Assembly: GCA_949358305.1 (NCBI GenBank)
Contig: OX442314.1
Location: 28,892,001 to 28,956,000, forward strand
Source of the DNA: Strigamia acuminata
Taxonomy: Eukaryota
Reading direction: 5' to 3'
DNA length: 64,000 bases
This document shows positions 5,934 to 47,663 of this stretch, in pieces. The stretch's first letter is position 1. Every line of letters begins with the position of its first letter. The position numbers and the translations under genes are program-made. The notes beneath the pieces are model-generated. The model was given only the letters and a program-made list of their open reading frames with translations, was not told the origin of the DNA and ran no database searches.

Positions 5934-6947
5934 TCAATATCACCCAATTTCGGCAAATTCAAATATTGTCTTATTCCATAAATAACCCTATCCTATGCAC
6001 TTTATGATTCAATAAAAAAATAACAGTCTAAAGACTAAAAATTTTTCTATTTAATTCAAATCTTGCATAATTTTGGGTATGGTTCAAAGTTATATTGCAA
6101 TGGATTATAAAGTATTGTGAAATGTATTGGGTTTGACAAAGCACTTGAAAATGTATTTTTTAATACATTTTGTAAAATGTATGATGAAATGCATTCCATT
6201 ACTATTTGTCAAATACGCATGCATTGTGAATATACATATTTACAAAATATGTTTTAAAATATATTTTAAAGTACTATTGTTAGAGAATTGTATTTGTAAA
6301 TGCATTGTCAAAATATATATTTTTTGATTGTATTATTCATGCATTAATTACTGCATGAATAATATACAGTATTTCAATTCCGCGAAAAGCAATATATTTT
6401 GGAATAGATCTTGAAATGCATTTGGGAAGGCATTAATTGGGCAAATCCAAATGAAATATGAACCATATGCGATAATAAAACAGCAGTAACAAAGAAAATA
6501 AAAGAAAAAAGAAAAAAGCAGTTTCAGGCTGAAAAAAATGCCATTTTGAGCATGAAAAATGCCGATTTGAACATGAAAAATGCCGATTTGAAGCTGAAAA
6601 ACGCTGAAAGGCAAAAACAAAAAACAGACAGCAGACCAACAGTCAGTTGAACTAAAGAAGGAGAAGTCAATGGCTAAAAGCAGAAGCAAAGACGTTTGAA
6701 GAACAATCCTAAACCATACATTAATAAATTCCGTTGTATTTGTCATGTGATACATTAATGATTACAATGTACAGATTAGTTTAGTATACCTACAGTAACA
6801 TGTTTAAGACAATTTTGCATCGTATCTTTGAATTTATTATTTGTTGACCCAAGCTTTAAGTCAAAAACTTATTTTCCATTCCTGAAAGTAGTTACCAGTA
6901 TGCTTGCAACTAAAATGTTTTTATTATCGAAAACTATTTATTCGCAG

Positions 6948-8713: not shown

Positions 8714-9157
8714 AATAATAAATTCCGCTTCAGTTAAGATTTCAGTAAGCCAAATCAAATGTACCATACAATAAGTCAATTTCTGCACCTTTAGAAATGA
8801 TAAAAAGAAATCCTCCAGCAGTGTTTAATAAATAATAAGGTTTGAATGAGGCGTATAAATGGGTTTGCTCTCGTTTAGAAAGACTCCCAAAGCACGTCCG
8901 TCGACGTCAATCGGTCACAAAATTAACAACAACACACTACACCAACACTTTGCTCTGCCCACCTACCAAAATTATTCTACCAAGTCAAAAAAACAATCCA
9001 TTATTTCTCATTGATCAGTCGCACATTACTGTTCGCTTTCTCACGTATTCTAATAAAGTCCCAAAAAGTATTTCACTTTATTGAAAGAGAGCACATTAGA
9101 ACGTTTCAACTGTCAATTAATGTAATTGTATTCTGTATAATTCATTATGTGCAAGTA

Positions 9158-11605: not shown

Positions 11606-11920
11606 AATGGTTATTCTGATAAATCTTTTCGGAAATCACTGGTCAGAACAATGCAGTTGCAGATCTATGACACTCGTGGTGAATTGGATGAAAGAATAAC
11701 ATAGACCAAAGAAATAAAATATTATTTCTCCAAAATTGGCTGAAAACGACCACCGCGAATGCTCGGTGTGCCTGGCATACGCCAAGCCTAGCAATGGTGC
11801 AGATTGGGTGGCAACATCCTAATTAGTTGCAGCCAGGGGCGGATCTAGCTTTTCGGAAGAAAAATTTAAAAAAAATATATTTAAAAAAAAGCTACTAAGA
11901 CTTTAGACCGGTTCGTGACT

Positions 11921-12403
11921 TGCGGCGATCCGGGTTTTTACTTAATAAATCGAGGAGACTTATCAAGCAATCGTCGTAGAGATGCCGTACAGGACTTCTA
12001 CTCTGTGGCCAAATGTTTGTCTAGGGGAATGATTTTACACAGAGTAAAGGAAAAATTAGATAGTTTTAATTAGTTCAAAAATATACAGGAGATATATGCA
12101 AAATAATAATGTTTGGGGTCGATCTGGCTTCTTCTTCACCAATATAAACTCACAGTTGACCGTTGGCTCCAAGATGGCGTCGACGGCGTCGTGTGAGCGC
12201 GGAATTTTAGCGGAGTAAACTCAACGCTAAAATACGCCTCTAAATATACTAAAATCCTCGCGGAGCAAGCTCAACACGAGAATACGTCTTGCACACAGCG
12301 ATTCGATTATTACGGAGCAAGCTCGACGTAACAATCGGTCTTCACACAGATCGCTTTGTGGAGTTAAACTCGACACAAAGCCTTCAAATTGACAGAGCAA
12401 GCG
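11921..12403 (-). repeat. Element A 3' LTR, left part (split by element B)
   Basis: Matches 46591-47073 with about five substitutions. Confidence 0.95.
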
Positions 12404-13418
12404 TGTCGCGCTCAACTCTAACCGTCGCTAACTCGTGGGTTGATTACTTAATTCGACTAACTCACTACCGCTTTGTTCGAGCGGTTTACCCAAAGAAATG
12501 ATTACACAGATATAAAAGGTAAAATATAATATAGATTTATTCTGTGGGACAATGTACAGATATATCTTATATATATATATGAAAGGTAAGTAAAAGGTAA
12601 ATCGGAATAGGTGATGGGAAATGGAGAGGTAAAGGTAAGATGAAAGCTGGCTGGAATCGGCGAGGTCGTCTGTTGTCTCGTTCGTGTCCAAGATGGCGTC
12701 CTCGTTGTGGCAACGTGATGTCGTCTTGGGCCGGCGTGGCAAGATGGCGTCCTCGACTCGTCTCTGGCTGGTCCTTCGGGCTCACGCTGGTCAAGCGCGA
12801 GTGAATGCTTAGTTAAAAGGCTTACTTCGGTCTGTTGTCTAGGTTTTTGTGTGGTGTCCGGCGATCACACAGCGGCGGACTCTTCTGGCTCCCGGCGGTC
12901 ACACAGCGGCGGGAACGCTCGTCGTGGTTTAACTGCAGTTTAGGCTTGTGCGACCGTTTGTCTGCACAACTCGCTAAACTGGAGTGGTTTTTACTATTTC
13001 TAGCTGATGTGCTAAAATAGTGTGGTAATCTTATCTCGCAGGTTACTCTGCGGAGTTTGACACTGACCAAACGTACTCACGGTAAATTGTCCTTTGTCCT
13101 TGGTCAATCCCAGTATATTTACTTGGGCCTGATCTTGTAGGACGACGGGTTTACGTGTGTTTCTCGTTTGATGGTTGTGTTGGTTCTGCCCGCTCAGTGC
13201 AAGGCACATTCCTTTGCACAAAGCGGGGTTGACAGGTGACCGGAATCACCCAATGGTGGGGTGGACGAGCCATCCCCACTCCCTCAGGGCAGACGCCTGT
13301 CCATTGACTAGATGTCAATGCACTGAGGGAAGGGAGACGCGCTTGCGGCTCCCCTTACACCCGAAACGAGGTCACGAGAGAAACTCTTCGTTGACCCCGG
13401 TCCAGTCGGGTCACCACA
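12404..13418 (-). repeat. Element B 3' LTR
   Basis: tgtcgcg...gtcaccaca; three clustered substitutions near 12911-12918 versus 24660-25674. Confidence 0.95.
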
Positions 13419-13430
13419 CTTCCCCCTCCG
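13419..13430 (-). promoter_or_regulatory. Polypurine tract of element B
   Basis: Minus strand CGGAGGGGGAAG directly before the 3' LTR. Confidence 0.85.
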
Positions 13431-13454
13431 AGCTCAGACCGTGGGGCTGAGCGA

Positions 13455-16400
13455 TCACTTCTTTTCTGGGGGACCCGACACTGAGTCCGTCACCTGGGCG
13501 TAACTCACTCCAGGGACAGGCGGTTGAGTGCCGGGTGGCGCGAGTAGATCGCCTACTAGCGCCGAGGACCGATCGCGGGGGTCCTCATGCTCCGTAATGA
13601 AGCATAATGCATGGCCGTCAACTGGCTCATGCGGGGCACGCGTCCTCTCGTGTAACCAAACGCTCGGGATGTAGGCGGAGAAGCCGGTGTTCGTATGCCG
13701 GATGGCATTGGCTTCCGCTGGCGTCACTGGTGCACGGTGGGCTCTCAGCAACCTCTGGTGGAAGATGAGGTCCTTAGTCTTCCGGATCTGGTTGTGAAGC
13801 CAGATGAAGACCGATTTGCCTTTATCCCGTTGTGCGAGGATAAACCTCCTGGTCGCCGTTGTCATCGAGAGATGGGGAAACTCTTCGATGATTCGCCCGT
13901 AATAGTCTGGTGGAGGCGGTGCCGGCTTCGGCTTCTGGGTGGCCGCGGGAATCACGGCTTGCGTCGTTGTCGCCGCTCGGGCCGGTGAGGTCCCGGGCGG
14001 TGTCGGCTTCGTTTGCTCGACGGACCTGACGGGTGGCGTTCGGCACAGTAAGCGCTTTGGCTTACCCGCCACTTCGAACAGGGCGGGTCCCTGCGGGGAT
14101 ATCTCCGCAGGCATCGGTGGCGGAATCGGAACTCCGCTCGTCGGCGAGATCACCATGTCTACATCCTCTGCCGATTCTTCCGTCTGGATGGTCAAGGCGC
14201 GCAGTTGTTGGGTAGGCGCCGCTGTCCAGGTGGCGGAGGTGTAACGAAACGCCGTGCTTCGCAACTTGTACCCTTCAAATTCTGGGTTTACCACATCCCT
14301 GGTTAGCTCGTAGCGAGTCAACACAGGGTCGGGCAGAATGGAGCTCCACTCTGCGAGGAGTGCACGGGGAACCTGTACACCCTCTCTGTCCACGACAGAC
14401 CATGCGGCCATCGCCTGACGCCCTTCTCCGAAGAGTGCTGGGGTTAGCAGCTGCATCATGACCTTGGTCAATGATAGCTGTAGGCTGCGACGATTCACTG
14501 GATTCGATCGCTCCGAATCCGCAGTGAAGGCACACGAGAGCTTACTCATCATCGCCGTTGCCCATTCGATGAAATATCGCTGGGCTTGATCCACACCTCG
14601 CAAGGCGGGTGCGGAGACTCTTGGGTCTTCCATCACGAAGCGAAACGCTGAGAGCTCGGAGATAGTCGGGTTGGCGGCTTCTCTCGCGAGTCGCGCTTCT
14701 TCGTCTCGCCTCTCGAAGAACAGGGCCGAGGAACCGGGTCGGGGTCGGCTCGGCCTGTAAATGTCGGTCAAATTGGCTCGACATTCCTGCATAATGCTCT
14801 GTCCAACGGGGAGAGGGACTGAGCGGTCGGTGGGTAAATCCGGCGGATCGCTCGAATTCAACAACGACGGTGGCGGCAGGTCCGGAGGCGGCTGCGTCTT
14901 GGTCGGCAGCGTTGGCGTCGGCAGCGGTGGTGTTGGCTGCGTCGGCGGTGGTGGCGTCTCCGTCGTCTGCACCCCAGTCATTGCGACTTGGGGCGCCGGG
15001 AGATGTTGTTCGGAGCTTGAGGGCTGCACGATGGCGGTTGGCATGCCATCGGGTCGTGGTCGCGAATTTATGTAGTCTGCGAGCCACCTTGCCACCTCGT
15101 GTGGGGTCACCATCCCGTCGGTGACAACACCCATCTTCCTGGCGTGTTTCATCGCGGGATCGAAACGTGTCAGTTTCGTCCGCTTCATCTGAGTCAGAAT
15201 CTCGCGAAGGTCCCGCGTATCTGCCGCTGGGACGTTTCGCTCACCTGACTGGCTACCACTTCGTCGACCCGCTCTCTTGGAGATGTAGGCGGGTTCGGGG
15301 ATGGGACGGCCCCGAGCTTCGCACCTCGCGAAGTATCGCTCCTTGCGATCTTTTTTCCGCTGCTCGCGATGAGTCAGCGGACGTCTAGAAGTGCTGGGAC
15401 GAGAGACTCGCTCTTCGTCACCAGACATCCAAACCTCCTTGCACTCCTTACCGTCTTTAATCTGACGGTTTACGAAAATTCGCGGTCGGGAATACTGCGA
15501 AGGGTCACGCACCGTACTAGTGGATGGCCCAGCTTCGTTGCCTTCAGTCGTGTTTGGAGTGACACGCTGCTTCTTGGTTGTCACCGGGGAACGCGACTGG
15601 CTGTTTCCGGCGCCTTTGGAGCGCTTGCGCTTCCGCGGGTAGCTGCTTTTGGGCCCCAAAATCCCCAGGTAGTGGAGCTGCCACATCTCGGCTTGGGACG
15701 TTAAAATTCCCATCCGAGGTCTCCACTGAGGCGTACTCTCCCCCAATCGCAGCCTCTCAAACCACAGATGAATATCATCCGCGGTCATCCCCTCGTTTTG
15801 GAGGATGCGCTCGGCCACTGCCGCAGCGGTATCCACCAGCTGTTGTCTATAATGCTGATAGATGGCCTCACGGGCCTCTTCTGTCTCGGCTGCTCGCCAC
15901 GCATGCAGCACGTGTTCCTCCGCCGGGTTGCCAGTGTACTGACTTGACAATCCGGGGTGGAAAATTGGCGATTTCGGGTCATCGTCATGAGCTAACTCTG
16001 TGGCGATGCCTTCGCGCATTCCCTCCGGGAATGTGTCCAGGAGCGTGCAGTCTCGTACCCAACGTCGGGCGATGCATCGGGAATGTAGTATTCGCAGGCG
16101 CCAAGGGTCGGCGTCTTCGCCGAAACATCGTCGGTAAAAATCGGGCAGCGCGCCTCGAAATATCCCGCCACGAGTGATGCAAGCGGGGTCTAATGGTCCC
16201 CATGTTCTACGTAATGCCATCTGGAAGGGTGGAGAAATAAACAATTAATAAAAAGTTAACATTAAATACGTAGATAAATGGTTGGTTTCGAGGGACGTTG
16301 CCGATACGTGCAGCCGTCCGTCGAGACCGATTCCTGTCTATCGGTGCAAACGTAGGACGAATTGTCCCTCGTCGGATAGAAAAAGAGAAGTCATCACGTA

Positions 16401-17153
16401 AAAAATCTGTCTCATGTCCAAAACGCACAGCGAGACGGAATCGAGCCTTTAATCTGGATTCTTATCATCAGATTTTACTTCAAATTAATTCTAACATTAA
16501 TTAGAACATTACTAATAATTAAATTAATAATTAACAGTCATTCGTAAAAAGAATTCGTCGGGTGTAAATTATTACTAAAATTGCACAATAAATGTGCTTG
16601 TCGAAATTTTATTAAATAAATAAACCTAATAAAGAATTATTCCGAAGTCGGACTTTGTCTAAATTTTTAAAAAGAAGTTAAAGTCAAATTAAATTTATCC
16701 AACACACCGAAAAATTCATCGTACGAATGTTAAGTTGCATCAATTCGATCCGTCAAATTACTTGTGGAGAAAAATATTCTTTTACAGAATATTCTCCCCT
16801 TGTCATAAACTTTTTATGGCTCGAGCCCATTGTCTCGCTCGTGACTCATGTCATGAGGAATTTTCGAGACGCGAGGCGACGTGAAGTCTACGATCGCATC
16901 CCGAAAACAAATTAACAAGAAAAAAATACGATCGTGTGAGCGATCGCGGTTAATAATCAATTATTCGCTATTTCGAGTGCAAAGCACTCATGTCAGGTAT
17001 TAGTCAAACAAAATTTCTTCTTCAGCAGCACGGAACTAATTCTCATGTGCCGATGCCGACTTCTACCTGATCGGGTGGGACTTGGTTTACATCGTGGTCC
17101 CAATTCTCGTCCTCGTGCTCGATGGCCAGCACGTCCTTCTCTTCCTCGTCCAT
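13455..17153 (-). CDS. Element B third gene (ORF3), unknown function, not env; predicted join 17153-17067 + 16220-13455, ~950 aa
   Basis: 921-aa open exon; acceptor ttatttctccacccttccAG; upstream exon MDEEEKDVLAIEHEDENWDHDVNQVPPDQ ends cag|GTagaa in phase 0; homologous to ORF3 of A and D. Confidence 0.8.
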
Positions 17154-17641
17154 GGCGAGGAGCGCGCACAAGAAGCTCAATCACGATTGAAAAAAGGATG
17201 ATAAAACTATCTCAAAAACTCGGTAAAAACTCGGTAAAAATGTTAAAAACGAGGATCACGCACGAATGCAGCAATCAGCTGTGAAAAGCGGAAGTCCGTG
17301 TGAACACGAGGTAATCGCGATGGATTCTGGGTAATATACTCCAGAACCCGGGTGTTTGAGACTAGTGCGCACCTACCCGTGCGCATGTTACGCTACGGGT
17401 CTCCTTTGTTTTCACTCCCGTGCGCGATTGCTGCTACGGGGTCTTTTGCACGCGGTATCCGACCCGTGCCGATAATTTTGCTACGGGTCCCGCGCTTCCA
17501 CGCCATCTTGTGACGCGAATTCGACCGATATCCGCTTTGTTGGACTTAGCGAAATTTTGTAGAGTCTCGGATTTTGATGGCTAGCGCTGCCGATCGGTCA
17601 TTTTTTTGTTTTTCAGCGTCGCCATCGACTCGTAACGTTTT

Positions 17642-20600
17642 CTACTCTTTTCCTACGACCTTTCCATCTTTTATAAATGGATTACTTCTACGAGGCCGCA
17701 GGTGATGAGTCGAGACAGGTACGACGTTTTTTGTTGTTTTTTTTGTCTGTACCTCCTCATTATTGCTTTCTTTTTTATCCGTGTTTTTTGTGTTTGTTTC
17801 AGGAGTTTCTCCTGTTTCCCCCCCGACCAAAATTGGATCCGGAACGGATTCAACTATCTCGTTTACCGGAGGTGAAGGGGCGTCGAAATACTCCTCGTTG
17901 TCACTTGGCGGTGCTTTTTCCGACTCGCCAGCGAACATATCGACGATTTGGCCGTCAGTTTTAGACTTGACTTGGCCCTTGGCCCACATTTCTTGCGGGA
18001 ATTCCGGAATGTACGGAGTTAACTCTCGTACTTGTATCGACTTATGCTCGGTATTGTCTTCGAGCTTACGTAATTTATACGCGTTACCGCCATGCTTGCC
18101 GATGATCACATACGGACCGTCTCTCTTGTCGGCCAAGCTGGCGGTGATTCCTCTCGCTGCATTTGAGAGGGTGTGTGCATCTTTCCACACCAAATCATTG
18201 ATCTCGAAATTCACGAATTTTCCACCGCTTTTATCTTGTAAAATGCGGTCGCGCATGTTAAAAATGTGCGCCATCATATGCTTGTATGTGTTCGAAATTG
18301 TTTGCTCCAATTTATACAAATACTCATGTGGTTTCTCTGGGTCCACCACATTTACCGACTCTGCCACTCGTGGGTCCCAAGGCACTCGTAGCTCTCGGGC
18401 GAAGTTGAGGTAGGCCGGAGAAAAATCTCTCGTCCTCGAGACTGTTGTTCGTATGCTGAACGCGATCTCCCTCAAGTATTCATCCCACCTATTGTGGATG
18501 TCAGTGAATATACTTAATGCATATTTGATGTCCCTGTTGAGTCGCTCAACGGGATTTGTTCTAGGATTGTAGGTCGAAGTATGTGACGCCACAATCCCGA
18601 ATTTTTTACAAAACTTACCCCAAATTTTCGAGATAAATTGGGGTCCGTTATCGGATATTATTTTACGTGGAAATCCGTAACGTAACGCCACGTCGTAGAT
18701 ACATTCAACGATTTTCTCTGCTGAAGGTCTAGCGACGGCGTACAACTCGGGCCAACGAGTCGCCACGTCCATTATTACGATAATGTACGCATTTTTATTT
18801 CCCGTAACGGGTTTTGGGCCCATCACATCGACACTTAAACAATCAAAAGGCGCGTAAGGCCCTAAGAAAATAGTTTCGAATGGTGATTTTCTCCTCGGCT
18901 TGCACGCTTGACATCGCTGACATTGGTGGACAAAAAGAGCAATATCTTTTTTCATCCCTGTCCAGTGAAAAAGCTGTGTAGCACGATAGAGTGTTCTGCT
19001 TACTCCCGCATGGCTCGCAAGCGGGTGCCCGTGTAACAACCACAGCACGCGACCGATTAAGGAAGCAGGTATTACTACCTTTACTGCGGTGTCCGATTCA
19101 CTCAAGTCATCTTGGTGATTTGGGTGATGTTTCACCAAAAGGCCGTCATCCAATAGGTAATCTATGGATTCGTGTGCATAACGACGCTTCTGCCTTCTGG
19201 TTAAGTTGGGCGGATACTTTCCTGTCAGTACGAATCTAGCTCTGTCCTGACATTTTTTGTCTAATTTTTGTTGCACAATTATTTCCTCCCTTGTCGGGGG
19301 ATTGCTTTGCATCTGCTTGCCGACATGAGCGTGGAAGGCGCTTAGAAGCGGGTCATTTATTCTCCGCTCTAGCTTAAATTCCTTCTTTGCATCTGAGTAA
19401 TTGTCAGCAGCTGGTTGGTATAACCGCGTCCAGAATCCACAGAATTTTACATCTGCCGGAGACGCGGTAGGAATTTCATTCATTTTCCTTAAATCCCAAC
19501 GGTGACAACTCGTAGGGCAATAAATGATGCGGGAGTCATCCTCGCCATCATCGTCAGCGTCGATTGGATCTGACACTGGTGCCCGTGACAGAGCGTCAGC
19601 CACGACGTTATATTTGCCGGGCTTGTATTGAATGGTCAAGTCGCATGCCATCAGTTCTAACTGCCATCTGGCTAGTCGACCGGCTGGCTCTTTTAATTTC
19701 ATCAGCCATTGTAACGCTTGATGATCTGTGTGGACCACAAATTTGGTATATTCGAGATAATCTCTGAATTTCCTTATGGCCCACACAACGGCCAAACACT
19801 CCAACTCTGTGGCGTTGTAATTTTTTTCAGCGCCTTGGAGTTTGCGACTTATAAACATGCACGGCAGGTCTTGTTCGACTCCGTCGCGCACGTGTGTTTG
19901 AAGCAACGCGGCTCCCAACCCAACTCTGCTGGCGTCCGTATGTAATATGAACGGCCGGTTTAGGTCGGGTAGAGGCATTACGCCGACTTCCGTCAGCATC
20001 CTCTTTATCGCATTAAATGCGATGTTGCACTCATTTGACCATACAAATTCGTTTTCATTCTTCAGGAGGTCGGTAACTGGGGCTGCCACTTCAGCTAGAC
20101 CTGGTAGTAACCTGCCGAAGAAGTTTATCATTCCCATAAACCGTTGGACACCTTTAACGTCCTCGGGTGGGGGGAAACGATTAATCGCATCGATTTTTTC
20201 GGGGCCAATAGCTAAACCATTGACTCCAATGCGATAACCCAGGAAGGCAAGTTCCTTTCGACAGAACTTGCTCTTGCCCGGGTGAACGTGTAACCCAGCT
20301 TTTGCCAGCCGGGTGAGCACTTGGTCGATGTGCTCAATGTGCTCTTCGAATGTTTTGGAGGCAATAACTATGTCATCTAGGTATGCCCATACAAACTGAT
20401 GCAGGATATCACCCAATACGCTTTCGATTAGTCTCTGAAAGGTACTGGGAGCGTTCACTAAACCAAATGGCATGACGTTGAACATCAACCGTCCAATTGG
20501 CGAGTAAAATGCTGTTTTTATCTTATCCTCTGGCCTCATCTCAACTTGCCAGTATCCCTTTGACAGATCCATCGTCGTAACCCAAGAAAAGGGGCTAAGC

Positions 20601-21781
20601 TCTCTCAAAATGGATTCGATAGACGGCATCTGTATGGGATCTATCTCTGTCACCGCGTTTAATGGGCGGTAATCAATGCATAGGCGTGGGTCCGAGCCCG
20701 GGCGCATCACGAGCACAACTCGCGTCGCGTATTCTCCCTGGGCCTCGGAGACAATGCCACTGTCTAGCATTTCTTGGCACATTTTTTGCACTATTTCACG
20801 TTTTTGCGGGTTCATTCCCTTATACGCAACTCGTATAGGTTTATTATTCGTCAATTTAATTTCGTGAATTGCCCTATTCGTTCGGCCCGGTTTTTTCGAC
20901 AGGATCCCCTCATATTTAATTAGGACCCTTCGTAGGGCTGCCGCTTCGTTTAATTCTAAAGCGGCGTCGGCGACAAGCGTTTCCACTACATTGTCCCGTT
21001 GCAATTCTGCTACGAATGCTTTAAAATCGTAGTCTTGAACGAATTTCTTTAGGCCTTTCTCCCACTGTGTCTTGTCGGCCGCTTCTTTTACAAGAGCTGG
21101 TGGCACGACAATTGCGGGTCTTTCCTTATCATTTCTGATATAATTCCAAGATTTCGTTATTGGATTTGGTTGTATTTCCATTGACGCCATGAGGTCTAAG
21201 CCCAACAGAAAAATTCTGTCGCATGTGGGCAGGACCAGGAAAGGGTGCTGTTCTACCCCTCCGAGCCACTCCATGGTCAATAATATAACTCCTTTTGGAC
21301 GCGCCATTCCGTTGGCGGTTTTTAGACGTATATTTTTATTAACGCCTTTTATCTTATCGGTGAGACCCAATGATGCTACTATGTCTTCGGAAACGAACGA
21401 GCGATCTGCTCCCGAGTCTAGCAGTCCCATAATTTTTTCACGTTCTATTGTCATGGGCAACATGCATAGGCGGTTGGTGTATTCGACCGCCACGTTGCAC
21501 ATGAAAACACGAAATTCTTCTGTGTCTTCGACTACTTGAGGTAATTCTTCAAGCAGTAGGTTCGGTTCTTCCGCCTCAGCCTCAGCGTTTGCGGTAATTA
21601 CCTGCAAAGCGTTGTTGGCCCTGTCTTGAATTTGGGCGTTAGCTATGTCACTACCCATTTCTTTGACTGGTGGCGGCTTATCGAACCCTTTGTTGAACCC
21701 CTTTTTCTTCATGAATGGCGCAGACGGTCGAGAAGTTATTTCTTCGCCGCCTGCGCTGACTCGTTTTTTGACTCGTTTTTT
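17642..21781 (-). CDS. pol: Element B Pol (protease, RT, RNase H, integrase), reached by -1 frameshift
   Basis: LLDSGA, YLDD, LHTDAS/ELECLAV, HHCC zinc motif, SDNG..VER, GPY; Gypsy domain order; frame stays open upstream of ATG 21712 to the slippery sites. Confidence 0.95.
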   Translation of the reverse strand, partial: KKRVKKRVSAGGEEITSRPSAPFMKKKGFNKGFDKPPPVKEMGSDIANAQIQDRANNALQVITANAEAEAEEPNLLLEELPQVVEDTEEFRVFMCNVAVEYTNRLCMLPMTIEREKIMGLLDSGADRSFVSEDIVASLGLTDKIKGVNKNIRLKTANGMARPKGVILLTMEWLGGVEQHPFLVLPTCDRIFLLGLDLMASMEIQPNPITKSWNYIRNDKERPAIVVPPALVKEAADKTQWEKGLKKFVQDYDFKAFVAELQRDNVVETLVADAALELNEAAALRRVLIKYEGILSKKPGRTNRAIHEIKLTNNKPIRVAYKGMNPQKREIVQKMCQEMLDSGIVSEAQGEYATRVVLVMRPGSDPRLCIDYRPLNAVTEIDPIQMPSIESILRELSPFSWVTTMDLSKGYWQVEMRPEDKIKTAFYSPIGRLMFNVMPFGLVNAPSTFQRLIESVLGDILHQFVWAYLDDIVIASKTFEEHIEHIDQVLTRLAKAGLHVHPGKSKFCRKELAFLGYRIGVNGLAIGPEKIDAINRFPPPEDVKGVQRFMGMINFFGRLLPGLAEVAAPVTDLLKNENEFVWSNECNIAFNAIKRMLTEVGVMPLPDLNRPFILHTDASRVGLGAALLQTHVRDGVEQDLPCMFISRKLQGAEKNYNATELECLAVVWAIRKFRDYLEYTKFVVHTDHQALQWLMKLKEPAGRLARWQLELMACDLTIQYKPGKYNVVADALSRAPVSDPIDADDDGEDDSRIIYCPTSCHRWDLRKMNEIPTASPADVKFCGFWTRLYQPAADNYSDAKKEFKLERRINDPLLSAFHAHVGKQMQSNPPTREEIIVQQKLDKKCQDRARFVLTGKYPPNLTRRQKRRYAHESIDYLLDDGLLVKHHPNHQDDLSESDTAVKVVIPASLIGRVLWLLHGHPLASHAGVSRTLYRATQLFHWTGMKKDIALFVHQCQRCQACKPRRKSPFETIFLGPYAPFDCLSVDVMGPKPVTGNKNAYIIVIMDVATRWPELYAVARPSAEKIVECIYDVALRYGFPRKIISDNGPQFISKIWGKFCKKFGIVASHTSTYNPRTNPVERLNRDIKYALSIFTDIHNRWDEYLREIAFSIRTTVSRTRDFSPAYLNFARELRVPWDPRVAESVNVVDPEKPHEYLYKLEQTISNTYKHMMAHIFNMRDRILQDKSGGKFVNFEINDLVWKDAHTLSNAARGITASLADKRDGPYVIIGKHGGNAYKLRKLEDNTEHKSIQVRELTPYIPEFPQEMWAKGQVKSKTDGQIVDMFAGESEKAPPSDNEEYFDAPSPPVNEIVESVPDPILVGGETGETPETNTKNTDKKESNNEEVQTKKTTKNVVPVSTHHLRPRRSNPFIKDGKVVGKE

Positions 21782-24587
21782 GCCATGGCGAGTTTAATCT
21801 CTGCCATCTGCTTCATTATCGCGTCAAACTTAGCGTCTTCTTTCGCTGTTCTTGGGCACTCATTGGAATAGTGACCCGGTTGGTTACACTTGAAACAACG
21901 AATATTTGATTTGTCTCTTGGGGCTTCAATCGATTTTTTCTTTTCAGGGTCTACTTTCGATGGTGGCGTGTAATTTTTCCGAAAATACTTCGGAATTCGG
22001 CCGGCATTTGGTTTTAACCTGGCGCGAAATTCTTCTACCGCTCTATCTCGATGGATGAGATGTACTAGCGGTCCTTCTTCATCGCTTCTGCCAGCTCCAT
22101 TATACCGCTAAGATATTCAGTAGGGCGCATAATCTTATCTGTCGCCCCATATCTTTCCGCACTCAACTTGAGACGTTTTGCGGTCGCTGCTTTCTCCGCT
22201 TCTGGTAAAGCGGAATAATATCTCTTCTCGATATCTATCGTGTTCTCGAACAGGAAGGCGCTCATTTCTTCGTAGCTGCCTCCTGTCGGTGCCCTTTCTT
22301 CAAGTAGCACCCGTTGCGAGTATTCCGACAAACCGCCGAGAAAGAAAAGGTTGAATCCCGTGGCATGAAATTCCATCGGGGCCTTTTCGAACAACAATCT
22401 GGCGCGAATGTCGTAATCCATTATGGTTTCACCAGGCATCTGGCGAAGACCTCGCATCTTTCGGCTCACCTCTTCGGGTGTCTCGCCGTAGCGCAGGTCG
22501 AATCTCATTAAAAAGTCGTCCCAATTGACGCCTTTCAATCCTTGGTACCACTCACGTGCCGAGCCTGTCATTAGCTTGACAATACCGTGGGTGAGCATGT
22601 CTCCTACGGTGGCTTTAGTGGCAGTCTTAATTCGAATTACTTCGTCAAGGAAGCGATCTCCCGCTTTCCATGACCCGTCGAAACGGTTCTGAATATAAAA
22701 TTGCCACCTAATATTCCCGGTAACACTCATGGTGTCACGTCGGGAGACAGCGTATTTTTTCTTTACGCGGTCGCCAGTGCTACGATTACGATCGTTTCGT
22801 TTGCTCAGATCGATTCCCTCAGCTTTTAACGAGCCGAGTAGGGCTCTTCCAAGCTCTCCCATCGTATACTGCCGACCCGTCAAATCGGTAAACGCGCTTT
22901 GTCGGGGAAGGTCCTGAAACTCCTCCCGTCGGTGGTCTCTATTTTCCGATCGACGTCGTTTCTCTCTATCGCGCGGAGAGTTGGATCTCTTCCGGCGATT
23001 ACTTGATTTATCATTTCGTCTGTCGTCGTTGGATGAGGGGTCGGAGCTGGGGTCGGGAGACGGTGAGCGGCGTGGCGGGTTGCGCCGTGAAGAGTTTGAC
23101 TCTTTCCGGCCCCTACGACGGTCGTCACGTTCCCTTTCCCTGCGTTCATCGCGTTCTCTTTCCCTTCGTCTTTCTCCGGAACCTCTCTCCGAATCGTGAT
23201 GACTGGGTGCATTTGACTCCAGTCCATCTGACGACGAATCACTATTTCCGTAGTGATAATATTTCGGTCTTTCATCGCGTTTGCCTTCTTCTCGCGAAGA
23301 GGTGCGATCATGCGATTGTCTCCTTGACGACTCGTCGTCTTTAAGGATGGGCACTGGTTGTTGCCACTCAGTCCTTTGCGGATTATCATGCTGTTGGCTT
23401 GTGAGAGCTTGCTCTTCATTTCGCCTAGCATTATTAGCGTTGATTAATCGCGTTATCGCATTATTTGTGGCTGAATCGAGAGCTTGCATGCGGGGCCGAG
23501 TTTGTTGTTCTCTGGCCGACGCATCTCTCTTGCGCGGAGTAGCTGGTGTTGCCCTCTCCGGCTGGGGTTTGGGTTTGGCCTTCGGCGTGCGCTTTGGGTC
23601 TCCCTCTAGGCTCTCGTCGGACAGCTCGGATAAACTGACCTCTGGTTTGCGGACGGATTTCGGGTCATCTCGTCGCAATCTGGCCATAAATGCTCGCTCT
23701 GCTTCTTGTTGCGAGTGGAAAGCATATCGATGTGCTCTCAGGGCTCGGTCAACTATTTCTACCTCCTCGGGAGTAGTCGGATTGGGCTGGGTTCTGCCGT
23801 ACTCGAGAGCTTGCGCTTCTCTTTCCGCCAGCTTCCTCCGTCTCTCGCGAATGGCTTGTCGAGCCTCGTTCTCTGCATCCGCTTCAAATTGAGCGGAATC
23901 AACCAATTGTTGAGCGTGTGCACCTTCAACAATGGTGATTTGTGGGGATACACTGTGCGCTTTTAAAGCTGCACGTACGATTTGTAACGTTTCGTACACT
24001 GTAATCTTTCCCGTCGGAAGGGTGTATCTCACTCCCTCCGCTTGTGCCAATTGCATCGCATCAATCAAGGTGCCCGAGACGCTGTAAGGCTGGCTCGAAA
24101 CACGCTTGACAGAGGACGAGTTGGACTTGTGCCCTTCAGACATTACCGAGGCTGGTCGACTGTGCGTAATTGGCGTGTTTAGCGCTGAATTCGCTGTCGT
24201 GTCGGACGCCGTCCTTTGTATCGAAGACGTCGCTCTCGGATCGCTCACTTCGGTATCGTGCGTTAGACGAGGCGATTGGTTACGGGATAAAACCTCGTTT
24301 CCGCTCGTCTCGCCGTCACGATTGGGACGCGGCGGTTTGGGGTGGGACGGATCCTCACTCTGCTCCGTCTCGTCTAATCGCTGCCTCGTCTCGGCGTGAG
24401 ACGGGTGCGATGCCTCCGAAGCGCTTCGTCGGTCTGGCTTGGCCTTGCGGCGTTTTTGCCTAGACTCGTGCGCTGAGGCTTTGGGCAAAGGACCTCCCGA
24501 CCTCAAATGATAGTCGGTTCCTTTGCGACTACCGGCTCGTTTGTTAACGTCTGAGTCGGAGTCTGTTACTCGAGTATTATCTGCCAT
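21736..24587 (-). CDS. gag: Element B Gag, with an apparent 1-nt frameshift near 22075
   Basis: 840-aa ORF directly after the PBS; CCHC knuckle CFKCNQPGHYSNEC lies downstream in the -1 frame, which stops at 21736. Confidence 0.85.
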
Positions 24588-24639
24588 TTCTTGCTTTGGG
24601 TATGAAGTAATCTCAGGTTAGAATCAGTTATTCAACTTG

Positions 24640-24657: not shown

Positions 24658-24659
24658 CG

Positions 24660-25674
24660 TGTCGCGCTCAACTCTAACCGTCGCTAACTCGTGGGTTGAT
24701 TACTTAATTCGACTAACTCACTACCGCTTTGTTCGAGCGGTTTACCCAAAGAAATGATTACACAGATATAAAAGGTAAAATATAATATAGATTTATTCTG
24801 TGGGACAATGTACAGATATATCTTATATATATATATGAAAGGTAAGTAAAAGGTAAATCGGAATAGGTGATGGGAAATGGAGAGGTAAAGGTAAGATGAA
24901 AGCTGGCTGGAATCGGCGAGGTCGTCTGTTGTCTCGTTCGTGTCCAAGATGGCGTCCTCGTTGTGGCAACGTGATGTCGTCTTGGGCCGGCGTGGCAAGA
25001 TGGCGTCCTCGACTCGTCTCTGGCTGGTCCTTCGGGCTCACGCTGGTCAAGCGCGAGTGAATGCTTAGTTAAAAGGCTTACTTCGGTCTGTTGTCTAGGT
25101 TTTTGTGTGGTGTCCGGCGATCACACAGCGGCGGACTCTTCTGGCTCCCGGCGGTCACACAGCGGCAAGAACGTTCGTCGTGGTTTAACTGCAGTTTAGG
25201 CTTGTGCGACCGTTTGTCTGCACAACTCGCTAAACTGGAGTGGTTTTTACTATTTCTAGCTGATGTGCTAAAATAGTGTGGTAATCTTATCTCGCAGGTT
25301 ACTCTGCGGAGTTTGACACTGACCAAACGTACTCACGGTAAATTGTCCTTTGTCCTTGGTCAATCCCAGTATATTTACTTGGGCCTGATCTTGTAGGACG
25401 ACGGGTTTACGTGTGTTTCTCGTTTGATGGTTGTGTTGGTTCTGCCCGCTCAGTGCAAGGCACATTCCTTTGCACAAAGCGGGGTTGACAGGTGACCGGA
25501 ATCACCCAATGGTGGGGTGGACGAGCCATCCCCACTCCCTCAGGGCAGACGCCTGTCCATTGACTAGATGTCAATGCACTGAGGGAAGGGAGACGCGCTT
25601 GCGGCTCCCCTTACACCCGAAACGAGGTCACGAGAGAAACTCTTCGTTGACCCCGGTCCAGTCGGGTCACCACA
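24660..25674 (-). repeat. Element B 5' LTR
   Basis: Direct repeat of 12404-13418. Confidence 0.95.
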
Positions 25675-26441: not shown

Positions 26442-29273
26442 TTATTTAGGCAACATGTCCGTCGAATGATCATTTGGATCCTTGTGCTCTGTGACGGTGC
26501 ACAAAGATCGGCCGACGTTTGGTCCTGACTGGAAGCCAGGGTTGATGTGAAGCCACACTTGTTTTATGCGGTTCACACCATCCCTTCGTCCAAACCCCAT
26601 TTCGAAGTACTCCTGCGGGTCCTTCGGCGTGATCCTGGCAAAAACGAGACGTTGATGGAGGAACCACAGCTGTTGTTCTTTGATGTGGTTCTCCAGCCAC
26701 GCGAGGACTCGGTTGCAGAGATCCTCGTTGTTCTGGAGAATCGTCTTCGTTGCACTCGTTATGTAGCAAAATGCATACACCGAGCGCAAGCGTTGATAGG
26801 CGCTTAAGTATGTTGCCATATTAAAGCCCCTCTCTCTTGGTGGCGAATCCTTTGGCGGTGGTGGTGGTGGCGGCGACTTTTTGCAGATCGAGAGCGATCA
26901 GGATATGCGCGAAGCCGGGGCGCGCGTCTTTGGTCTTGCACCGCTGGCCACAGGCACGACGAACTCGCGGTTGTCACTGTCGAGCCATTCCATTGGAGAC
27001 GAGAGTTGGCAACTCGGTGCTTCGGTTGCTCGCATGACACCCGACGTTGCCGCTACGACAGTGTTGAGTGGAGCGGCTGATGATGGTGGAGCGCCAGCAG
27101 GACGGGCGGTAGCTCGTTCCGTTGCGCGTTGCTGTTTCAGCGTAGCCCATTCTTGCCGTAGTCGAATGGCGGACCCAGCTGGGGTTTCGCCAGTCGCCTC
27201 GGCTTGGTGCGTTAATTCGGCGAGCATGGTCGGAGGATCGGGGCGAACTGACTCCCAATCGTCCAGCAAGGCTCGAGGAAGCCCTAACGGCACGGTCCAC
27301 AATCGAGTGGCGGCCGTCAGAGCCATTCGTAGGTCAGGAAAGACTCCTTGGAACAGGATTCTAAGAAGCCCCTCCGACAGTTTCCTGTGCATCTTCTGCA
27401 GCGTTCGTTGCAGTTGTTTGTCGGATTTGCACGACTCGATCTCTCGGGCAACCCATTGCCATCCTTTTTCACCTTCGCGGATCTGAGCGAGTTGGTATTC
27501 GTCCAGATGCGCGAGGTACATTGTTTGGGCTGTCTCGGGAAACGATGAGAATCGCCTCCAGAGATCAGCGCACTCCTGTGCGGGAAATGGTTCCGGCGAG
27601 ATGTGTGATCCCTCGAAACGAATGACTGTCGTCACTTGTGGCTCGGGCACAGACGTATCGAGTCGCATGTCGCTGGTGACTGGACGGCAAGCGAACGGCA
27701 AAGAGGTGTTGACGTCTCCCTGACCGGCTTGCAATGCGGCGATGCGTCGATCTTCCTTCGCTATCTCGTCCGACCAGTCGATCTGGCCGGAGGAGGAAGC
27801 GCTAAGCTGTGAAGCGTTGGATTTTTCCTCACGCGACGAGAGTGAACTCCTCGGATTGGCGCGATTGCACTCGAGGTCGGCTTCGGGATGAGTGTCTTGA
27901 AACGGACTTCGAATGTCTTTTCGGTGGCGTTGACTCGCGTCGATGATGTGAGCGATGACGAGTCTTCTGGAGTGGAGGTAACCCTCCAATGGCGCCTTCC
28001 CCCGACGACTGTGTTGGGGAGGAGCGACGGCCACTGTAAGGCGACCTCGATGATCGTGACCTCGACGTGGAGCGCGGTGGCACCACGTGGATGGTGGATG
28101 CGATTGGTACCCGGGGCTCGGGCTCTGGGTACGGGTTCGGCACGAAGTTAGCGTGGAAACATCCGCCCATGGCTAGTTGATGCATCTCCGATTGGCATGT
28201 CGGCACCCAACGTCTCCTTCCGTCCGTGGTTGGCCGGAAAGATTCGTGGTAGAGGCGCACAACCTCGGCTTTGGTTTGGTCCAAGCGTTGGAAAATGTCC
28301 TCCAAAATCTGTCGACGCTCCCACGCAGGAGCGTTGAAGTAACGGCGATGGTCTCGCGTTTCTTGAGCGATCACTACGAAGGCGAAGTCTAGCAACACAT
28401 TTCGTAGTGGTCCGTAGGTGTCGCGCTTCTGTGCCCACTCGAGGGCGTCGCGATGACCGAATCCATCGATTAATTAGGCAATCCGGAACTTTGTCCCCCA
28501 TCGCTTGTTAAGGGCTTTGGAGAATTTGTGGCGGGCCGCCCAAAACGTCAGTCTTCCTTTAGACTTGATGATTTCCGGCGGCAAAGCGTGTCGCCAGACG
28601 CCGGGATCGGTCGGAACATCGGGATGCAGTTCGAGATGTGTTTCCCGAAGCTGGATGATCTGTAAAATATTCGAAGAAATAATTAAAATCCATTTTTTCG
28701 TCAAAATTAATCATTTCCGAATTTTAAGTGAATAAAATCACGGTGAGATTTCATTCGACAGTTTAGATTCGTTAAATTTTTCAAAATAATTGAAAAATCG
28801 TGAAAAACGTTGTTTCCGACGGCTATGTTTCAATGTTGGAGCGTTACCGTAGCAACGCCTCAAAAACGAGACACAGCGCCATCTGATGATAAAAATGGCG
28901 GCGCCTTCTTGCGAAGGCGTTACCAACGAACTTTTCGCTTTTTCCGAGTGAAAATGCACTTTTAATTACTTTTCATGACTGAAAGGTAATTTTATTTTAA
29001 ATTATTTACCTGTTCGTGCCTCTGCGCACGTGTTTCGCCGTTTGGATCGGCGAATAGGCCTCCTCGTAGTCGGGGCTGGGGCGGCGTGACTGGCAAACGG
29101 GCAGCAGCGTCGGCCAGAGCGGCTTGAGCTTCGGCGGACGCTTCGGCGGACTCTTCGGTGACATCCACGAATGCATTCGAGGTGTTTGCGGAACCAAGCA
29201 GCGTCGAATTTGTTTCTAATTCGAGACTGTTGGCGCCGACTTTGCTTCCTTCTTTCGGTTCCTCTTCTTCCAT
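26442..29273 (-). pseudogene. Element A third gene (ORF3), frameshifted; exon 29273-29010 spliced to an exon starting at 28659
   Basis: Pieces in different frames (GVWRHALP; CQSEMHQL; LPRALLDDW..PDP; WLENHI..HQRL..VWLH..EHKDP) are colinear with ORF3 of B and D; donor cag|GTaaat, acceptor attttacAG. Confidence 0.8.
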
Positions 29274-29483
29274 TTGAACGACTAATCCAAATGGAAAAGA
29301 AAAACGAAAATTAATTTATTAGCTTTTCCTTGGAAAATTCCAAAGAAAAAACTACTTACAATTGAAGAATCTCGTTGAAATAATCCGATTGTTTCGCTTT
29401 TGGTTCTTTGGAGATGAGCACTTAACACACGTGTGAGATCGAAGTGAACTCAGACGCGAAGTGATCAGTTCAAATACCGGAAG

Positions 29484-32400
29484 TTACGTTTGGGTAACGT
29501 CGTGGTTAGCGACGTCATCCAATCTTATTATTTGATTGGTTTGCGTATGGCTTGGGGAATTGCTCCTTACGTCATACGGCTGATCCCTGGATCTCGAGGT
29601 TATCGAGGGGAGAAGACACATGTTGTTTTTTCCTCTCGGTTTACGAGTCCGAAGATTATATCTCTTTGTCGGCGAGGGATTTATTGTATTTAAATCGCCG
29701 TCTTCATTGTCATCGGAGACTGAGTCAGATGAGTCTTTTGTTTTAGATGTTTTTTGTTTCTTTTCTAAAAACACCTTTTTATTTAATTTTTTAGCAATTT
29801 CAAGCTTTTTGAAACTGTCTCGGAGCTCAACGTCGTTGTTTACAAAATCGGACTCCAGGGGGCGATTAGATGAATTATCGACTGGTATTTTCTTTAATTC
29901 ATTGTCATCTAACGTATTAATTATATTTTCAGTCTTTTGACCGACTTCTTCGCCTTCGAGCCATACTTCCTGATCAAAACTCGGGAAATACGGAGTTAAT
30001 TCCGATGAATGGACAGCTGGAAATATTTCGTTATTTTCTAGCTTTCTCAATTCTACTGAACCTCCCTGTAATACTTTGGTTATTACATAAGGTCCTGTTC
30101 GTTTATCAGCGATGCCAGCTGCAATGCCGCGGGCAGCACTCGACAAAACATGAGAATCTCTCCAAACTAAATCGTTTAATTTAAAATTGGAGAACTTCTC
30201 ACCTTCTTTTTTAATATTCACTCGTCTACGTAAATCTAACACGTGTGACATCATGTGCTGATATGTTTCGGCGATAACTGCTTCTAATTTTTGCACGTAT
30301 AAATGTGAGTTTTTTGGATCTACGACCAAAATTCCTTCAGGTATTCTTGGATCCCAAGGTACTCTGAGTTCGCGAAAAAAGTTAAGAAATGCGGGAGAGA
30401 AGTCTCTTCCTCTCGTCACCGTAGTTCTCAAACTAAATGCAAATTCACGCAAATATTCGTCCCATTTGGAATGAACAGATGAATAAATTGCAACAAGATA
30501 TTTGATGTCACGGTTAACTCTTTCAACCGGGTTAGCCTGCGGGTGATACGTTGAAGTTGGCGTTGGAACCATCTTGAACTTTTCACAAAATTTTTTAAAG
30601 ACTTGGGCACGAAATTGCGGGCCGTTGTCAGAAATAATTTTACGAGGGAATCCCATGCTCATGGAAAGGTGATAAATGCAATTTGCTACTTTTCCAGCAG
30701 TGAGGTTACACATTGGATACAATTCTGGCCAATGAGTTGCCACGTCAAGTATGACTAAAATATGTGTGTTGTTTTTGCGCGTCCGTGGTTTCGGGCCGGT
30801 CAAATCAACACTTAGGCAGTCAAATGGGCTGTAAGGACCCATTTGCGCTGCTTCAATTTGTCCTTTCGTTCGAGGCTTGCAAGCTTGACAGCGCTCGCAG
30901 TGTCGAATGAATCTCGTAATGTCCGATTTCATGCCTTTCCAGGTATAAATTCGGCGCGCTCGATAAAGAGTCCTAGCAATTCCTGGGTGGCCAGAAAGTG
31001 GGTGGCCATGCATCAGCCAAATAATTTTATACTTCAATGTCTGAGGTACAAATACTTTGAGTGCTCTCCCATCCTCCCCCAATTCATCAGACATTGTGGG
31101 ATGAAATTGCATTAGTAAGTCATCTTCAATTAAGAAGGTTGTTGCGTGTTTTCTATATTGTTTCCTCTGAAGTCGCGTAGTGACGTCAGGCGGAAATTGA
31201 TTACAATTTAAAAAATTACGCATCAATTGACAAACTTTATCTTCTTTTTGGGCCTTAATTATGTCTTCCCTTGTGGGGGGTTCACAATCAAGACGCTCTA
31301 CAATTTTGGCGACAAATGCTTTTATTAAAACATTTGACGAAGGAATTTGGAATTTCCTTGAAATTTGTGCTCTTATGACGTCATCTGATTCTTCAGAGGG
31401 GTCATAAATTTTAGTCCAATAGTTGACGAATTCGTGATCTTCCTTCTCTTCCAATGTGGAGACAGGATGTTCATGAAATTTTCCCATTTTCCAATTTCGT
31501 TGTGGTGATGGACAATAAGATAATAACTCGTCATTATCTCCATCGTCTTCAGGATTTTCTGGTTTATCAATCGGTGATCTGGATAAAGCATCCGCTAAAA
31601 CATTTAGTGGACCTTTAATGTATTGTATTTCGAAAGAATAGCGCATCAGCTCTATTTGCCAACGTGCCAGCCTTCCGGCAGGTTCGTCTAACTGCATCAA
31701 CCATTTTAATGCTTGATGGTCAGTCCTTACTATGAATGTTGTAAATTCCAAATAATGTTGGAATTTACGTAATGCCCAGATTACTGCTAGGCATTCTAAC
31801 TCTGTGGCGCTGTAATTTATTTCAGCAGGTTGTAAACTTCTGCTGGCATAAACGTAAGGCACTTCGATGTTTTGATCATCGATTTCTCTCATTTGCATAA
31901 GCGCGGCGCCTAGTCCTTTCCTGCTAGCGTCGGTATGTACAATAAATGGTTTTGTCAAATCAGGCATGGCCATTGTTTCTGCATTTGTTAAAGCGTCTTT
32001 TATTTGATCAAAAGCTTCTTGATGCATTTCTGACCAAATAAATTCTACATCTTTTTTGAGTAAAGGACGTAGAGGTTCTGTCATAACTGCTAGATTTTTA
32101 AGTAATCGGTGAAAAAAGTTCACCATTCCCAAAAATCTTTGCAACTCTTTCAAATTTGAAGGAGCTGTCATTTCCTTTATAGCGGCGACTTTTTTAGGGT
32201 CGACACTAACTCCTTGAACACTTAACTTGTAACCAAGAAAAGTTAATTCTTTTCTGCCAAATTTTGATTTTTCTGGATGAACATGAAGATTTGCATTTTC
32301 AAGTTTACTCAGAATTTCTTCCAGATGAATCATGTGTTCTTCAAAATTTTTAGATATAATAATTATATCATCGAGGTATGCCCATGCAAATTTTCGATAG

Positions 32401-33858
32401 GCGTCCCCCAAAATTTTTTCTATCAACTTTTGAAAAGTTGACGGTGCATTTACGAGACCAAAGGGCATGACCCGAAATTGTAGTCGACCCAAAGGACTCC
32501 AAAACGCAGTTTTCGCACGGTCGTTCGGATGAACCTCTATTTGCCAATACCCTTTTGACAAATCTATTGTTGTGACCCACTCAAATCTTCCGAGTTCTCG
32601 CAAGATTTCCTCAATGCTGGGCATTTGAGGTGGATCATATAATGTGTGTGCATTGAGTGGTCTAAAATCAATGCAGAGTCTCGGATCACAATCCGGACGC
32701 ATCACTAGAACTATTCGCATTCCATAATCTCCAGTGGCTTGTTCAACGTACCCATTATCCAACATATCTTGACAGATTTGACGAATAATTTCACGTTTCT
32801 GTGGATTTACGCTTTTAAACGGAACTCTAATAGGAACTTTAGTGTCCAGTTTAATTTCATGCCTAACGAGGTGTGTTCTACCTGGTCGGCGTGACAAAAT
32901 CTTTTCATGTTTCTTTAATACTTTTTCAAGCATTAAATTATTTTCCATTGACAAATTAACGTCGCTAACAAGTCTTTGTACTACATTTTCTTCATTGGCA
33001 ACTTTAGCTTGACATGCAGTGGCGGAACCAGCTTTCATGTGATTTGCTTTAATAAAGTCGCGTTTCATTATTTCTTCGGGTGGATCAAGGAACTCTTGAT
33101 AACGATCAAGAATTGCTTGAGGAACAAAAGGTAAATCTTCTTTCAAAGTCTTAACAAAATTCCAAGACATGGTCTTAGGATTTGGTTGAATATTGAGTCG
33201 ATTCATGAAATCACATCCTAATAAAACAATAGGATATTTATTTCTTAAAATTATGAATGGATGGCTTAACATCCCGTGTGTCCACGCAAAAGAAAGTAGG
33301 AGAGTTTCTTCAGGGACTACATCTTCTGAAGCAGTCGTAACTCTCACGTCTGGTCCTATTGGTCGAATTTCATCTTCCAGTTTCAGCGAAATTACTACGG
33401 AGTAGGCCATGAAGCTTCGGTTAGCTCCAGAGTCTAACATCCCTGTTATCATACCGTTTGCCGTCTGTAATCGAATCGTCGGCAAATCATTGCTGTTTGG
33501 TATGTCCGCGTACTTGCATTTAAAACGTCGCGGTGGTTTAATTTCTATCGGCGGATCCAATGGTAATTCGTCCAATAAATCATTAGTGACTAGCGTTGTA
33601 GCCATTAATTTTTCAATGCATTCATCAAGACCAGGTAAATCAATTTTATCTGATCTTTCAATAATTTCATGTGTTGGCCTAGCTTTTTCATCTAGTAAAG
33701 TAACAGCATCTTTTATTTTAGATTCCCAATCAACTTTTATTTGTTAAACTTTTTCTTTAAAAAATTCTTCAGTGATGTTTTCATTTTGCAGCACAAGCCT
33801 TAAACTGGAAACATCAATTTTCGGAAATTCTAAATTATTTTCAATCTCTAATTTAATC
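29484..33858 (-). CDS. pol: Element A Pol; 1373-aa open part 33605-29484, N-terminus broken by an in-frame TAA (33744-33746) and by element C
   Basis: MLDSGA, YLDD, VHTDAS, HGHPLSGH..CERC, SDNG..VER, GPY; the frame continues across the element C insertion to 43503-43613. Confidence 0.93.
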
Positions 33859-46498: not shown

Positions 46499-46570
46499 TT
46501 TGTCAAATTGAGAAAGAACAATGGAAATAAAGGATCTTTTTGCAAAAATCGGATTTTAACAATCAAAACT

Positions 46571-46590: not shown

Positions 46591-47663
46591 TGCGGCAATC
46601 CGGGTTTTTACTTAATAAATCGAGAAGACTTATCAAGCAATCGTCGTAGAGATGCCGTACAGGACTTCTACTCTGTGGCCAAATGTTTGTCTAGGGGAAT
46701 GATTTTACACAGAGTAAAGGAAAAATTAGATAGTTTTAATTAGTTCAAAAATATACAGGAGATATATGCAAAATAATAATGTTTGGGGTCGATCTGGCTT
46801 CTTCTTCACCAATATAAACTCACAGTTGACCGTTGGCTCCAAGATGGCGTCGACGGCGTCGTGTGAGCGCGGAATTTTAGCGGAGTAAACTCAACGCTAA
46901 AATACGCCTCTAAATATACTAAAATCCTCGCGGAGCAAGCTCAACACGAGAATACGTCATGCACACAGCGGTTCGATTATTACGGAGCAAGCTCGACGTA
47001 ACAATCGGTCTTCACACAGATCGCTTTGTGAAGTTAAACTCGACACAAAGCCTTCAAATTGACAGAGCAAGCTCAATGTCAATTTACACACAGAAATGGC
47101 TTAAATTACGCGTAGTAATTCAAGCTAGAAAGTTGCTATTCCGTACAGTGGGTACAGACCAGCGATGAAACTCAATTCGTCCAAGAATCACAGATCACAC
47201 TTTGCAGTTTTGGCAGAAGTTTGACACGGTTGTGAACAGTTTGGAGGTGGAATCAAGAGTGCGGGAAGAGTGGGCCAAAACCGTTTGGCTCACTCCAAAA
47301 TCTGCTCAGTAAAGCTGCGCAGATGACGAGTTGCACAAAGATCACACACGGCCGCCTTCGGGTCGTGTGCAACAATTGAGCCGGGCACGCGCGAGGGGAA
47401 GGGATGCTCCGCCCAGGCACACGCCTAGCAGCATCATCAAAGCAATGCACGCTGCAGCATGATTGGTTGACGCTGTTGCCGGGCCAAAACTTGCTGCAAA
47501 ACACAATATTATTTGGGTAATATGGTGTCTTGTTTTATATTTGATTAAGATATATTTTATTTCAATTTACATTGAAACAAAACATATAAACTTGTTGAAT
47601 ATGTTTCTAAGACAATTTGGAAATATGGTGCGCACTCAAATAGGAATATTTGAGGTCACCACA
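46591..47663 (-). repeat. Element A 5' LTR
   Basis: Uninterrupted copy; contains the empty site gagcaAGCTcaatg where B sits in the other LTR. Confidence 0.95.

Follow-up and report, generated by a model that had tools for sequence, protein, structure and literature searches.

Third genes other than env are a known kind in LTR retrotransposons, and CERV, the bdelloid ORF3s and the plant aORFs are described examples. In animal LTR retrotransposons, accessory proteins of known function are few; CERV, from the C. elegans element Cer1, has a tested role and solves the intron-retention and export problem of Cer1 genomic RNA (PMC10309623, PMC3315495). The GDSL esterase and DEDDy exonuclease ORF3s of bdelloids belong to known enzyme families and have intact catalytic residues (PMC5408684). 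Plant aORFs are family-wide extra ORFs after pol without outside relatives, some of them nuclear (PMC7264820). In errantiviruses the slot is occupied by an F-type or gB-type env, the ectodomain of which has a membrane anchor at one end and a signal peptide, or else a second membrane helix, at the other (PMC13524379), and in Tor3b/4b elements env forms a separate transcription unit after pol (PMC4402516).

Here we explore the third gene of three LTR elements (A, B and D) in a 64,000-nt window of the Strigamia acuminata genome, the window being the whole stretch of DNA analysed. Judged by its sequence, it is a conserved non-envelope gene, likely spliced, of a host-restricted Ty3/Gypsy lineage. 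Like the bdelloid Juno/Vesta ORF3s it is a non-env third ORF in animal LTR elements, but it matches neither of the enzyme families described there (PMC5408684). With the plant aORFs it shares the position after pol and the lack of outside relatives; plant nuclear aORFs are antisense, whereas this gene is same-sense (PMC7264820). It also differs from Tor env, a membrane glycoprotein whose message is unspliced when it starts at the internal promoter (PMC4402516). The literature searched, mostly open-access and outside Repbase and Dfam, gave no description of this protein family, of its predicted exons after pol or of its unmatched C-terminal domain, and both the family and its intron architecture appear undescribed.

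CERV is the closest comparison. Both are non-env ORFs of Gypsy/Ty3 elements, placed after pol and before the 3' LTR, with a spliced multi-exon message (predicted here), three ordered domains, flexible linkers and a basic import motif, and neither has relatives outside its own lineage. CERV, however, has 517 aa against ~830-950 aa, and its first exons are common with gag (PMC10309623), whereas the predicted upstream exons of the third gene lie after pol. Its M domain has an invariant Cys loop, whereas no block of the third gene has a conserved Cys; its G-protein-like domain is not among the fold matches of block 3, and block 2 gave generic helical bundles. Compared by CERV's description only, the two give no evidence of homology.

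The element nest and the shared third gene

Features are collected in Table 1. On the minus strand, B lies inside the 3' LTR of A, and C is inserted in A, the three being nested in one another; A reads 5' LTR, gag, inserted C, pol, third gene, 3' LTR. The LTR pairs differ at 3 of 1016 aligned positions in B and at 6 of 1078 in A, and both elements have 4-bp target duplications, with one mismatch in B's; low LTR divergence and target duplications together indicate that both insertions are recent. The first-pass annotation spoke of three Gypsy-type elements. This holds for A and B, in which LTRs, primer site, purine tract, gag and a PR-RT-RH-IN pol place them in Ty3/Gypsy; D, whose pol lies beyond the window end, is assigned only through the start of its LTR, the purine tract and the homology of its ORF. 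As assembled, neither copy is fully intact: B has a frame break at 21740-22070, just before the gag zinc knuckle, and A a stop near the start of its pol frame (33744-33746).

Table 1. Features of elements A, B and D in the window. Exons and introns marked predicted derive from sequence.
Feature	Positions	Strand	Basis or remark
B third gene, main exon, 921 aa from ATG	13455..16220	minus	ORF and homology
B main exon, blocks 1, 2 and 3	~aa 15-190, ~495-665, ~770-885		
D third gene, main exon, 928 aa after acceptor, open	61054..63840	minus	first Met: residue 45
A third gene, main exon	26442..28659	minus	broken by two stops and one frame change
B 3' LTR	12402..13418	minus	LTR pair alignment
B 5' LTR	24658..25674	minus	LTR pair alignment
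B gag ORF	22065..24617	minus	frame break before zinc knuckle in this copy
B pol, PR-RT-RNase H-IN	17642..21793	minus	domain search
A 5' LTR	46591..47663	minus	
A 3' LTR, split by B	25673-26268 and 11921-12402	minus	
A gag (Retrotrans_gag, zf-CCHC)	43601..46555	minus	domain search
A pol, PR-RT-RNase H-IN	29484..33743	minus	domain search
D third gene and 3' LTR	LTR begins at 61006	minus	rest of D beyond window end
B predicted intron, 846 nt, GC 0.36	16221..17066	minus	strong acceptor directly before ATG
B predicted acidic coding micro-exon, 29 codons, GC 0.56, phase 0	17067..17153	minus	
B predicted small untranslated intron, 98 nt	17279..17376	minus	consensus scan only
B three repeated hairpin/palindromic units after pol	17376..17487	minus	candidate cis-element
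A predicted intron, 350 nt, GC 0.33	28660..29009	minus	donor 6/7 consensus positions
A predicted acidic coding exon, 88 codons, GC 0.59, phase 0	29010..29273	minus	
A predicted small untranslated intron, 78 nt	29282..29359	minus	consensus scan only

As the first-pass annotation had reported, B, D and A each carry a same-sense ORF before the 3' LTR; the three are homologous and all on the minus strand, and the coordinates of A and B place the ORF downstream of pol. The B and D proteins are identical at 261 of 944 positions (28%, E 1e-87) over nearly their whole length. Each block comparison was scored against 300 shuffles. For B against D, z was 53, 65 and 39 for blocks 1, 2 and 3; A scored 10 against B and 12 against D in block 2, and 27 and 13, respectively, in block 3. 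In block 1, where A is represented only by the piece after its first stop, z was 6.8 against D and 1.8 against B. Linker 1 reached 5.2 and linker 2 -0.1. As described earlier, there are three colinear blocks; the linkers that join them are Arg/Ser- and Pro-rich, and the motifs quoted for the blocks occur in B and D and, in part, in A. The blocks are not repeats of one another. Linker 1 holds 9 (B), 16 (D) and 14 (A) RS/SR dipeptides, and basic motifs begin right after block 1, at residue 196 in B and 195 in D. The copy of A, previously called frameshifted, does show one frame change, but it also has two in-frame stops. Compared as DNA, B shares a single 92-nt match with A and D across their third genes, spacers and LTRs.

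The pol proteins of A and B are 48% identical, or 61% over RT-RNase H, for which the best outside match has 45% identity. In a tree of the 109 of 122 rows that aligned over at least 400 residues, built without named reference elements, both pols pair as sisters at the end of a long stem; the group around them has tick and springtail pols among its members. A search with the pol alignment gave two short, distant loci, and none in viral contigs.

Further observations concern the surroundings. C (33856-43502, plus strand) has 1.9-kb LTRs that differ at 1 of 1904 positions, 235-bp tandem repeats after its primer site, and neither gag nor pol. Its one same-sense ORF (501 aa, 39500-41005), before the 3' LTR, is unlike the third gene and without a match in Pfam, NCBIfam or PHROGs; C is a non-autonomous element keeping only an orphan gene. 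A 9-mer similar to a YY1/Pho site is found at 11 places in the window, where 0.54 would be expected; the LTRs of all four elements have it, and it is also present at 17501-17509. Primer-binding sites lie at 24640-24657 (B), 46573-46590 (A) and 35762-35781 (C); we take them to be of tRNA-Pro type in A and B and of tRNA-Gln type in C. In A, but in neither B nor D, the interval from third-gene stop to LTR (26270-26440) contains an AT-rich stretch in which polyadenylation-like hexamers occur. A foldback-like element at 2289-5012 comprises 56-bp repeat arrays, 551-bp units and 926-nt inverted arms at 99%. An inverted 259-nt piece of B's gag (5349-5607) beside a 200-N gap is probably another B copy at a contig break. 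Host genes of the amiloride-sensitive sodium channel family stand in tandem at 6716-9144 and 47678-60186, with the retrotransposon nest inside the array. No tRNA genes were found, and an Rfam scan of 11000-30000 gave no match.

Protein properties, searches and selection

The first-pass annotation saw no signal peptide, transmembrane helix or Cys-rich ectodomain and proposed a soluble product, and both points were borne out. The hydropathy scan detected no signal peptide, no N-terminal hydrophobic stretch and no C-terminal membrane anchor, the C-termini being Pro-rich. Over 19 residues, hydropathy peaked at 1.07 in B and at 1.75 in D, where the peak lies inside block 2, and did not exceed 1.06 in any piece of A; no cysteine is invariant in any block of B, D and A. 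Errantivirus env shares the slot, the sense and an acceptor before the ORF, but has a signal peptide, a membrane anchor and a cysteine-bridged ectodomain, all of which the third gene lacks (PMC13524379). The earlier premise that env normally fills this slot applies to such elements but is too narrow, given CERV, the bdelloid GDSL/DEDDy genes and the plant aORFs. A cryptic env or fusogen is largely excluded and we give it hardly any credence: position and spliced-type acceptor match env, yet signal peptide, C-terminal anchor and conserved cysteines are missing, the predicted first exons are acidic, and the structural model is mostly helical with long disordered linkers. F or gB folds were not among the structure matches of the full model, itself of low confidence (pTM 0.28).

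Sequence, profile, language-model and fold searches gave no homologue, in line with the first-pass annotation, which had recognised no family. There was no match in a word-based search with B, in phmmer against 1.84 billion representatives, in metagenome and viral contigs queried with the B-D alignment, or for the block-3 alignment against longer proteins, a weak search by the tool's own note. The ESM Atlas gave none for the whole protein or for block 3, a blank that shows neither absence nor novelty. Pfam returned none at the curated cut-off for all nine block pieces, PDB sequences nothing significant (best E 0.074), and NCBIfam and PHROGs no significant match, the best PHROG being a HTH family (E 0.075, D only). 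A GDSL candidate, confined to block 1 of B, was rejected, its 12.9 bits falling short of the cut-off of 32.9. Pol is isolated as well, so the third-gene blank may be due to a lack of samples from the host's group no less than to a family that is truly new.

The full B model (pLDDT 50.9) has ordered, mostly helical regions at ~100-185, 500-640 and 770-880, separated by long disordered linkers. Foldseek found nothing at E 0.001 in PDB or BFVD, and in the fold search of the full model the best Z, 7.2, was a generic helical bundle in block 2. Block 3 alone, modelled from three sequences, reached pLDDT 78 and pTM 0.74, with five helices and three short strands; 29 of 48,161 chains scored Z >=2 (best 3.9, none at 5) and BFVD gave no match. 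Such blanks do not establish a new fold, and block 1 was barely covered, by the full model only. In block 3, all three copies keep His at two positions and Arg, Trp, Glu and Asp at one each. The C-terminal domain, as modelled, lends itself to study as a possible undescribed fold.

Selection on the gene, postulated from block-wise conservation, is purifying, residues being kept while synonymous sites are near saturation. Codon-position identity ran second > first > third in nine of nine block comparisons, with pS 0.66-0.82 and pN 0.40-0.55; with codons aligned by protein and synonymous sites near saturation, these values show long-term constraint and are not a usable dN/dS. Variants of family B were taken from two public runs of unrecorded kind, from one study and possibly from the source sample. 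Among the 40 listed of 155 variant rows, silent changes accounted for 3 of the 5 third-gene variants, for 11 of 15 pol variants and for 7 of 8 gag variants; among the 12 listed of 27 indels none fell in main exon, pol or gag, all small counts. In the time since insertion the third gene of A would be expected to gain 0.27 stops, but it has two (Poisson P ~0.03 for two). This excess suggests decay before this copy inserted, with the protein supplied in trans or dispensable, though the breaks may be assembly errors. The gene may act in trans, since A's copy is broken in three places.

Predicted splicing and the hairpins of B

The third gene probably has several exons, of which the ORF would be the last. 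Each of the three ORFs starts where a pyrimidine- or AT-rich tract closes with CAG, an acceptor shared by all, and has in-frame stops 5-17 codons upstream. The first Met lies at residue 159 in A and 45 in D, after the first conserved motif, so that both need an upstream exon. A and B have a common predicted order of small intron, acidic exon, AT-rich intron and main exon; their predicted acidic exons start Met-acidic-acidic and end CAG|GT in phase 0, followed by an AT-rich, intron-like stretch, and blastn found no similarity between the two pol-to-third-gene spacers. In B, micro-exon plus main exon would total 950 aa, and the single indel listed in the micro-exon (among 12 of 27) is of 3 nt, in frame, and adds one codon. 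Against splicing in B stand its weak donor (<5/7 consensus positions) and its own ATG right after the acceptor. None of the 15 read joints listed, of 23, fell at a predicted junction, which speaks neither for nor against splicing. There may be a further splice from gag or leader to the third gene.

The third hairpin unit of B overlaps the predicted donor, and the region folds at z -2.65. A search pattern, chosen after seeing the units, matched three times in the whole window, always in B, against 0.29 expected, and 1 of 100 shuffles reached three. The A spacer has no such hairpins or palindromes, and the LTRs no palindromes.

Possible roles of the third gene

An element with internal introns can be copied, round after round, only from genomic RNA that still contains them, and this RNA must be exported. 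The reading we favour, tentatively and at well below even chance, is a CERV/Rev-like soluble nuclear protein that would protect genomic RNA with its introns from splicing and allow its export. A nuclear location and an accessory role are suggested by the basic motifs and the gene's position. A spliced subgenomic mRNA would join the acidic micro-exon to the main exon. Import of the protein would fall to the basic motifs that follow block 1, and contact with RNA and with the machinery of splicing or export to the folded blocks and the Arg/Ser-rich linker. The protein would bind the full-length RNA of its own element, possibly at the hairpin triplet over B's predicted donor, and so keep the introns in and promote export; working in trans, it would allow copies such as A to lose it. 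The slot, the predicted spliced message, the three ordered domains, the basic motifs and the Arg/Ser-rich linker all favour export, by analogy with Cer1. Against it, the hairpins occur in B only, the protein has no counterpart of CERV's Cys loop, and a scan of B, D and the A pieces for a simple leucine-rich pattern of export signals gave no match. Errantivirus env, moreover, is a spliced third gene without a known export protein. The same applies to Tor3a env (PMC4402516). Basic and acidic patches, finally, fit a transcription factor equally well.

This last point leads to the main rival of the export role, a DNA-binding transactivator made from an internal promoter after pol, with the acidic micro-exon as activation domain and the palindromes as DNA sites, which we hold possible but rather doubtful. 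Foamy-virus Tas is a precedent for such an activator. The acidic first exon of both A and B, the basic import-like motifs and the three spaced palindromes in B's spacer would suit it, as would the internal promoters after pol in Tor3b/4b elements (PMC4402516), but there is no significant match to a DNA-binding family (the D-only HTH match at E 0.075 came nearest), the palindromes are absent from A and from the LTRs, and neither the A nor the B spacer has an Inr consensus. Fast divergence with domains kept could instead mark an anti-silencing factor directed against piRNA or chromatin repression of its own family, and recent, abundant copies (by the LTR pairs, 3/1016 and 6/1078, and very high summed depth in two runs) are compatible with one. 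VANC-type proteins offer a precedent. No chromatin or small-RNA domain was matched, however, and we consider this role unlikely.

The nesting of A, B and C might reflect targeting, and Pro-rich linkers suit adaptors, as for an accessory of particle or integration that serves capsid transport, nuclear entry or target-site tethering; nesting is nevertheless common without targeting, and in the window the third gene shows no chromodomain and no similarity to Gag or IN, which makes this role quite unlikely. That block 3 is a small metal-binding catalytic domain, captured like the hydrolases of the bdelloid ORF3s, seems less probable still. Its invariant His, Arg, Trp, His, Glu and Asp and its fairly confident folding (pLDDT 78) point that way, yet invariance among only three sequences is weak, Pfam and PDB sequences gave no match, and the GDSL score in block 1 of B lay far below its cut-off.

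A bolder form of the export reading, which we regard as doubtful, would have a multi-intron regulatory gene with a ~950-aa product that includes one or more folds not yet described and governs its own RNA by way of the donor-overlying hairpin array; it would constitute an independent Rev/RRE-type switch outside retroviruses and Cer1, acting in trans on defective relatives. Whatever its role, a large, selected and probably intron-containing gene is present in elements with pols only 48% identical, and the third gene offers a concrete case of how simple retrotransposons become complex, retrovirus-like genomes.
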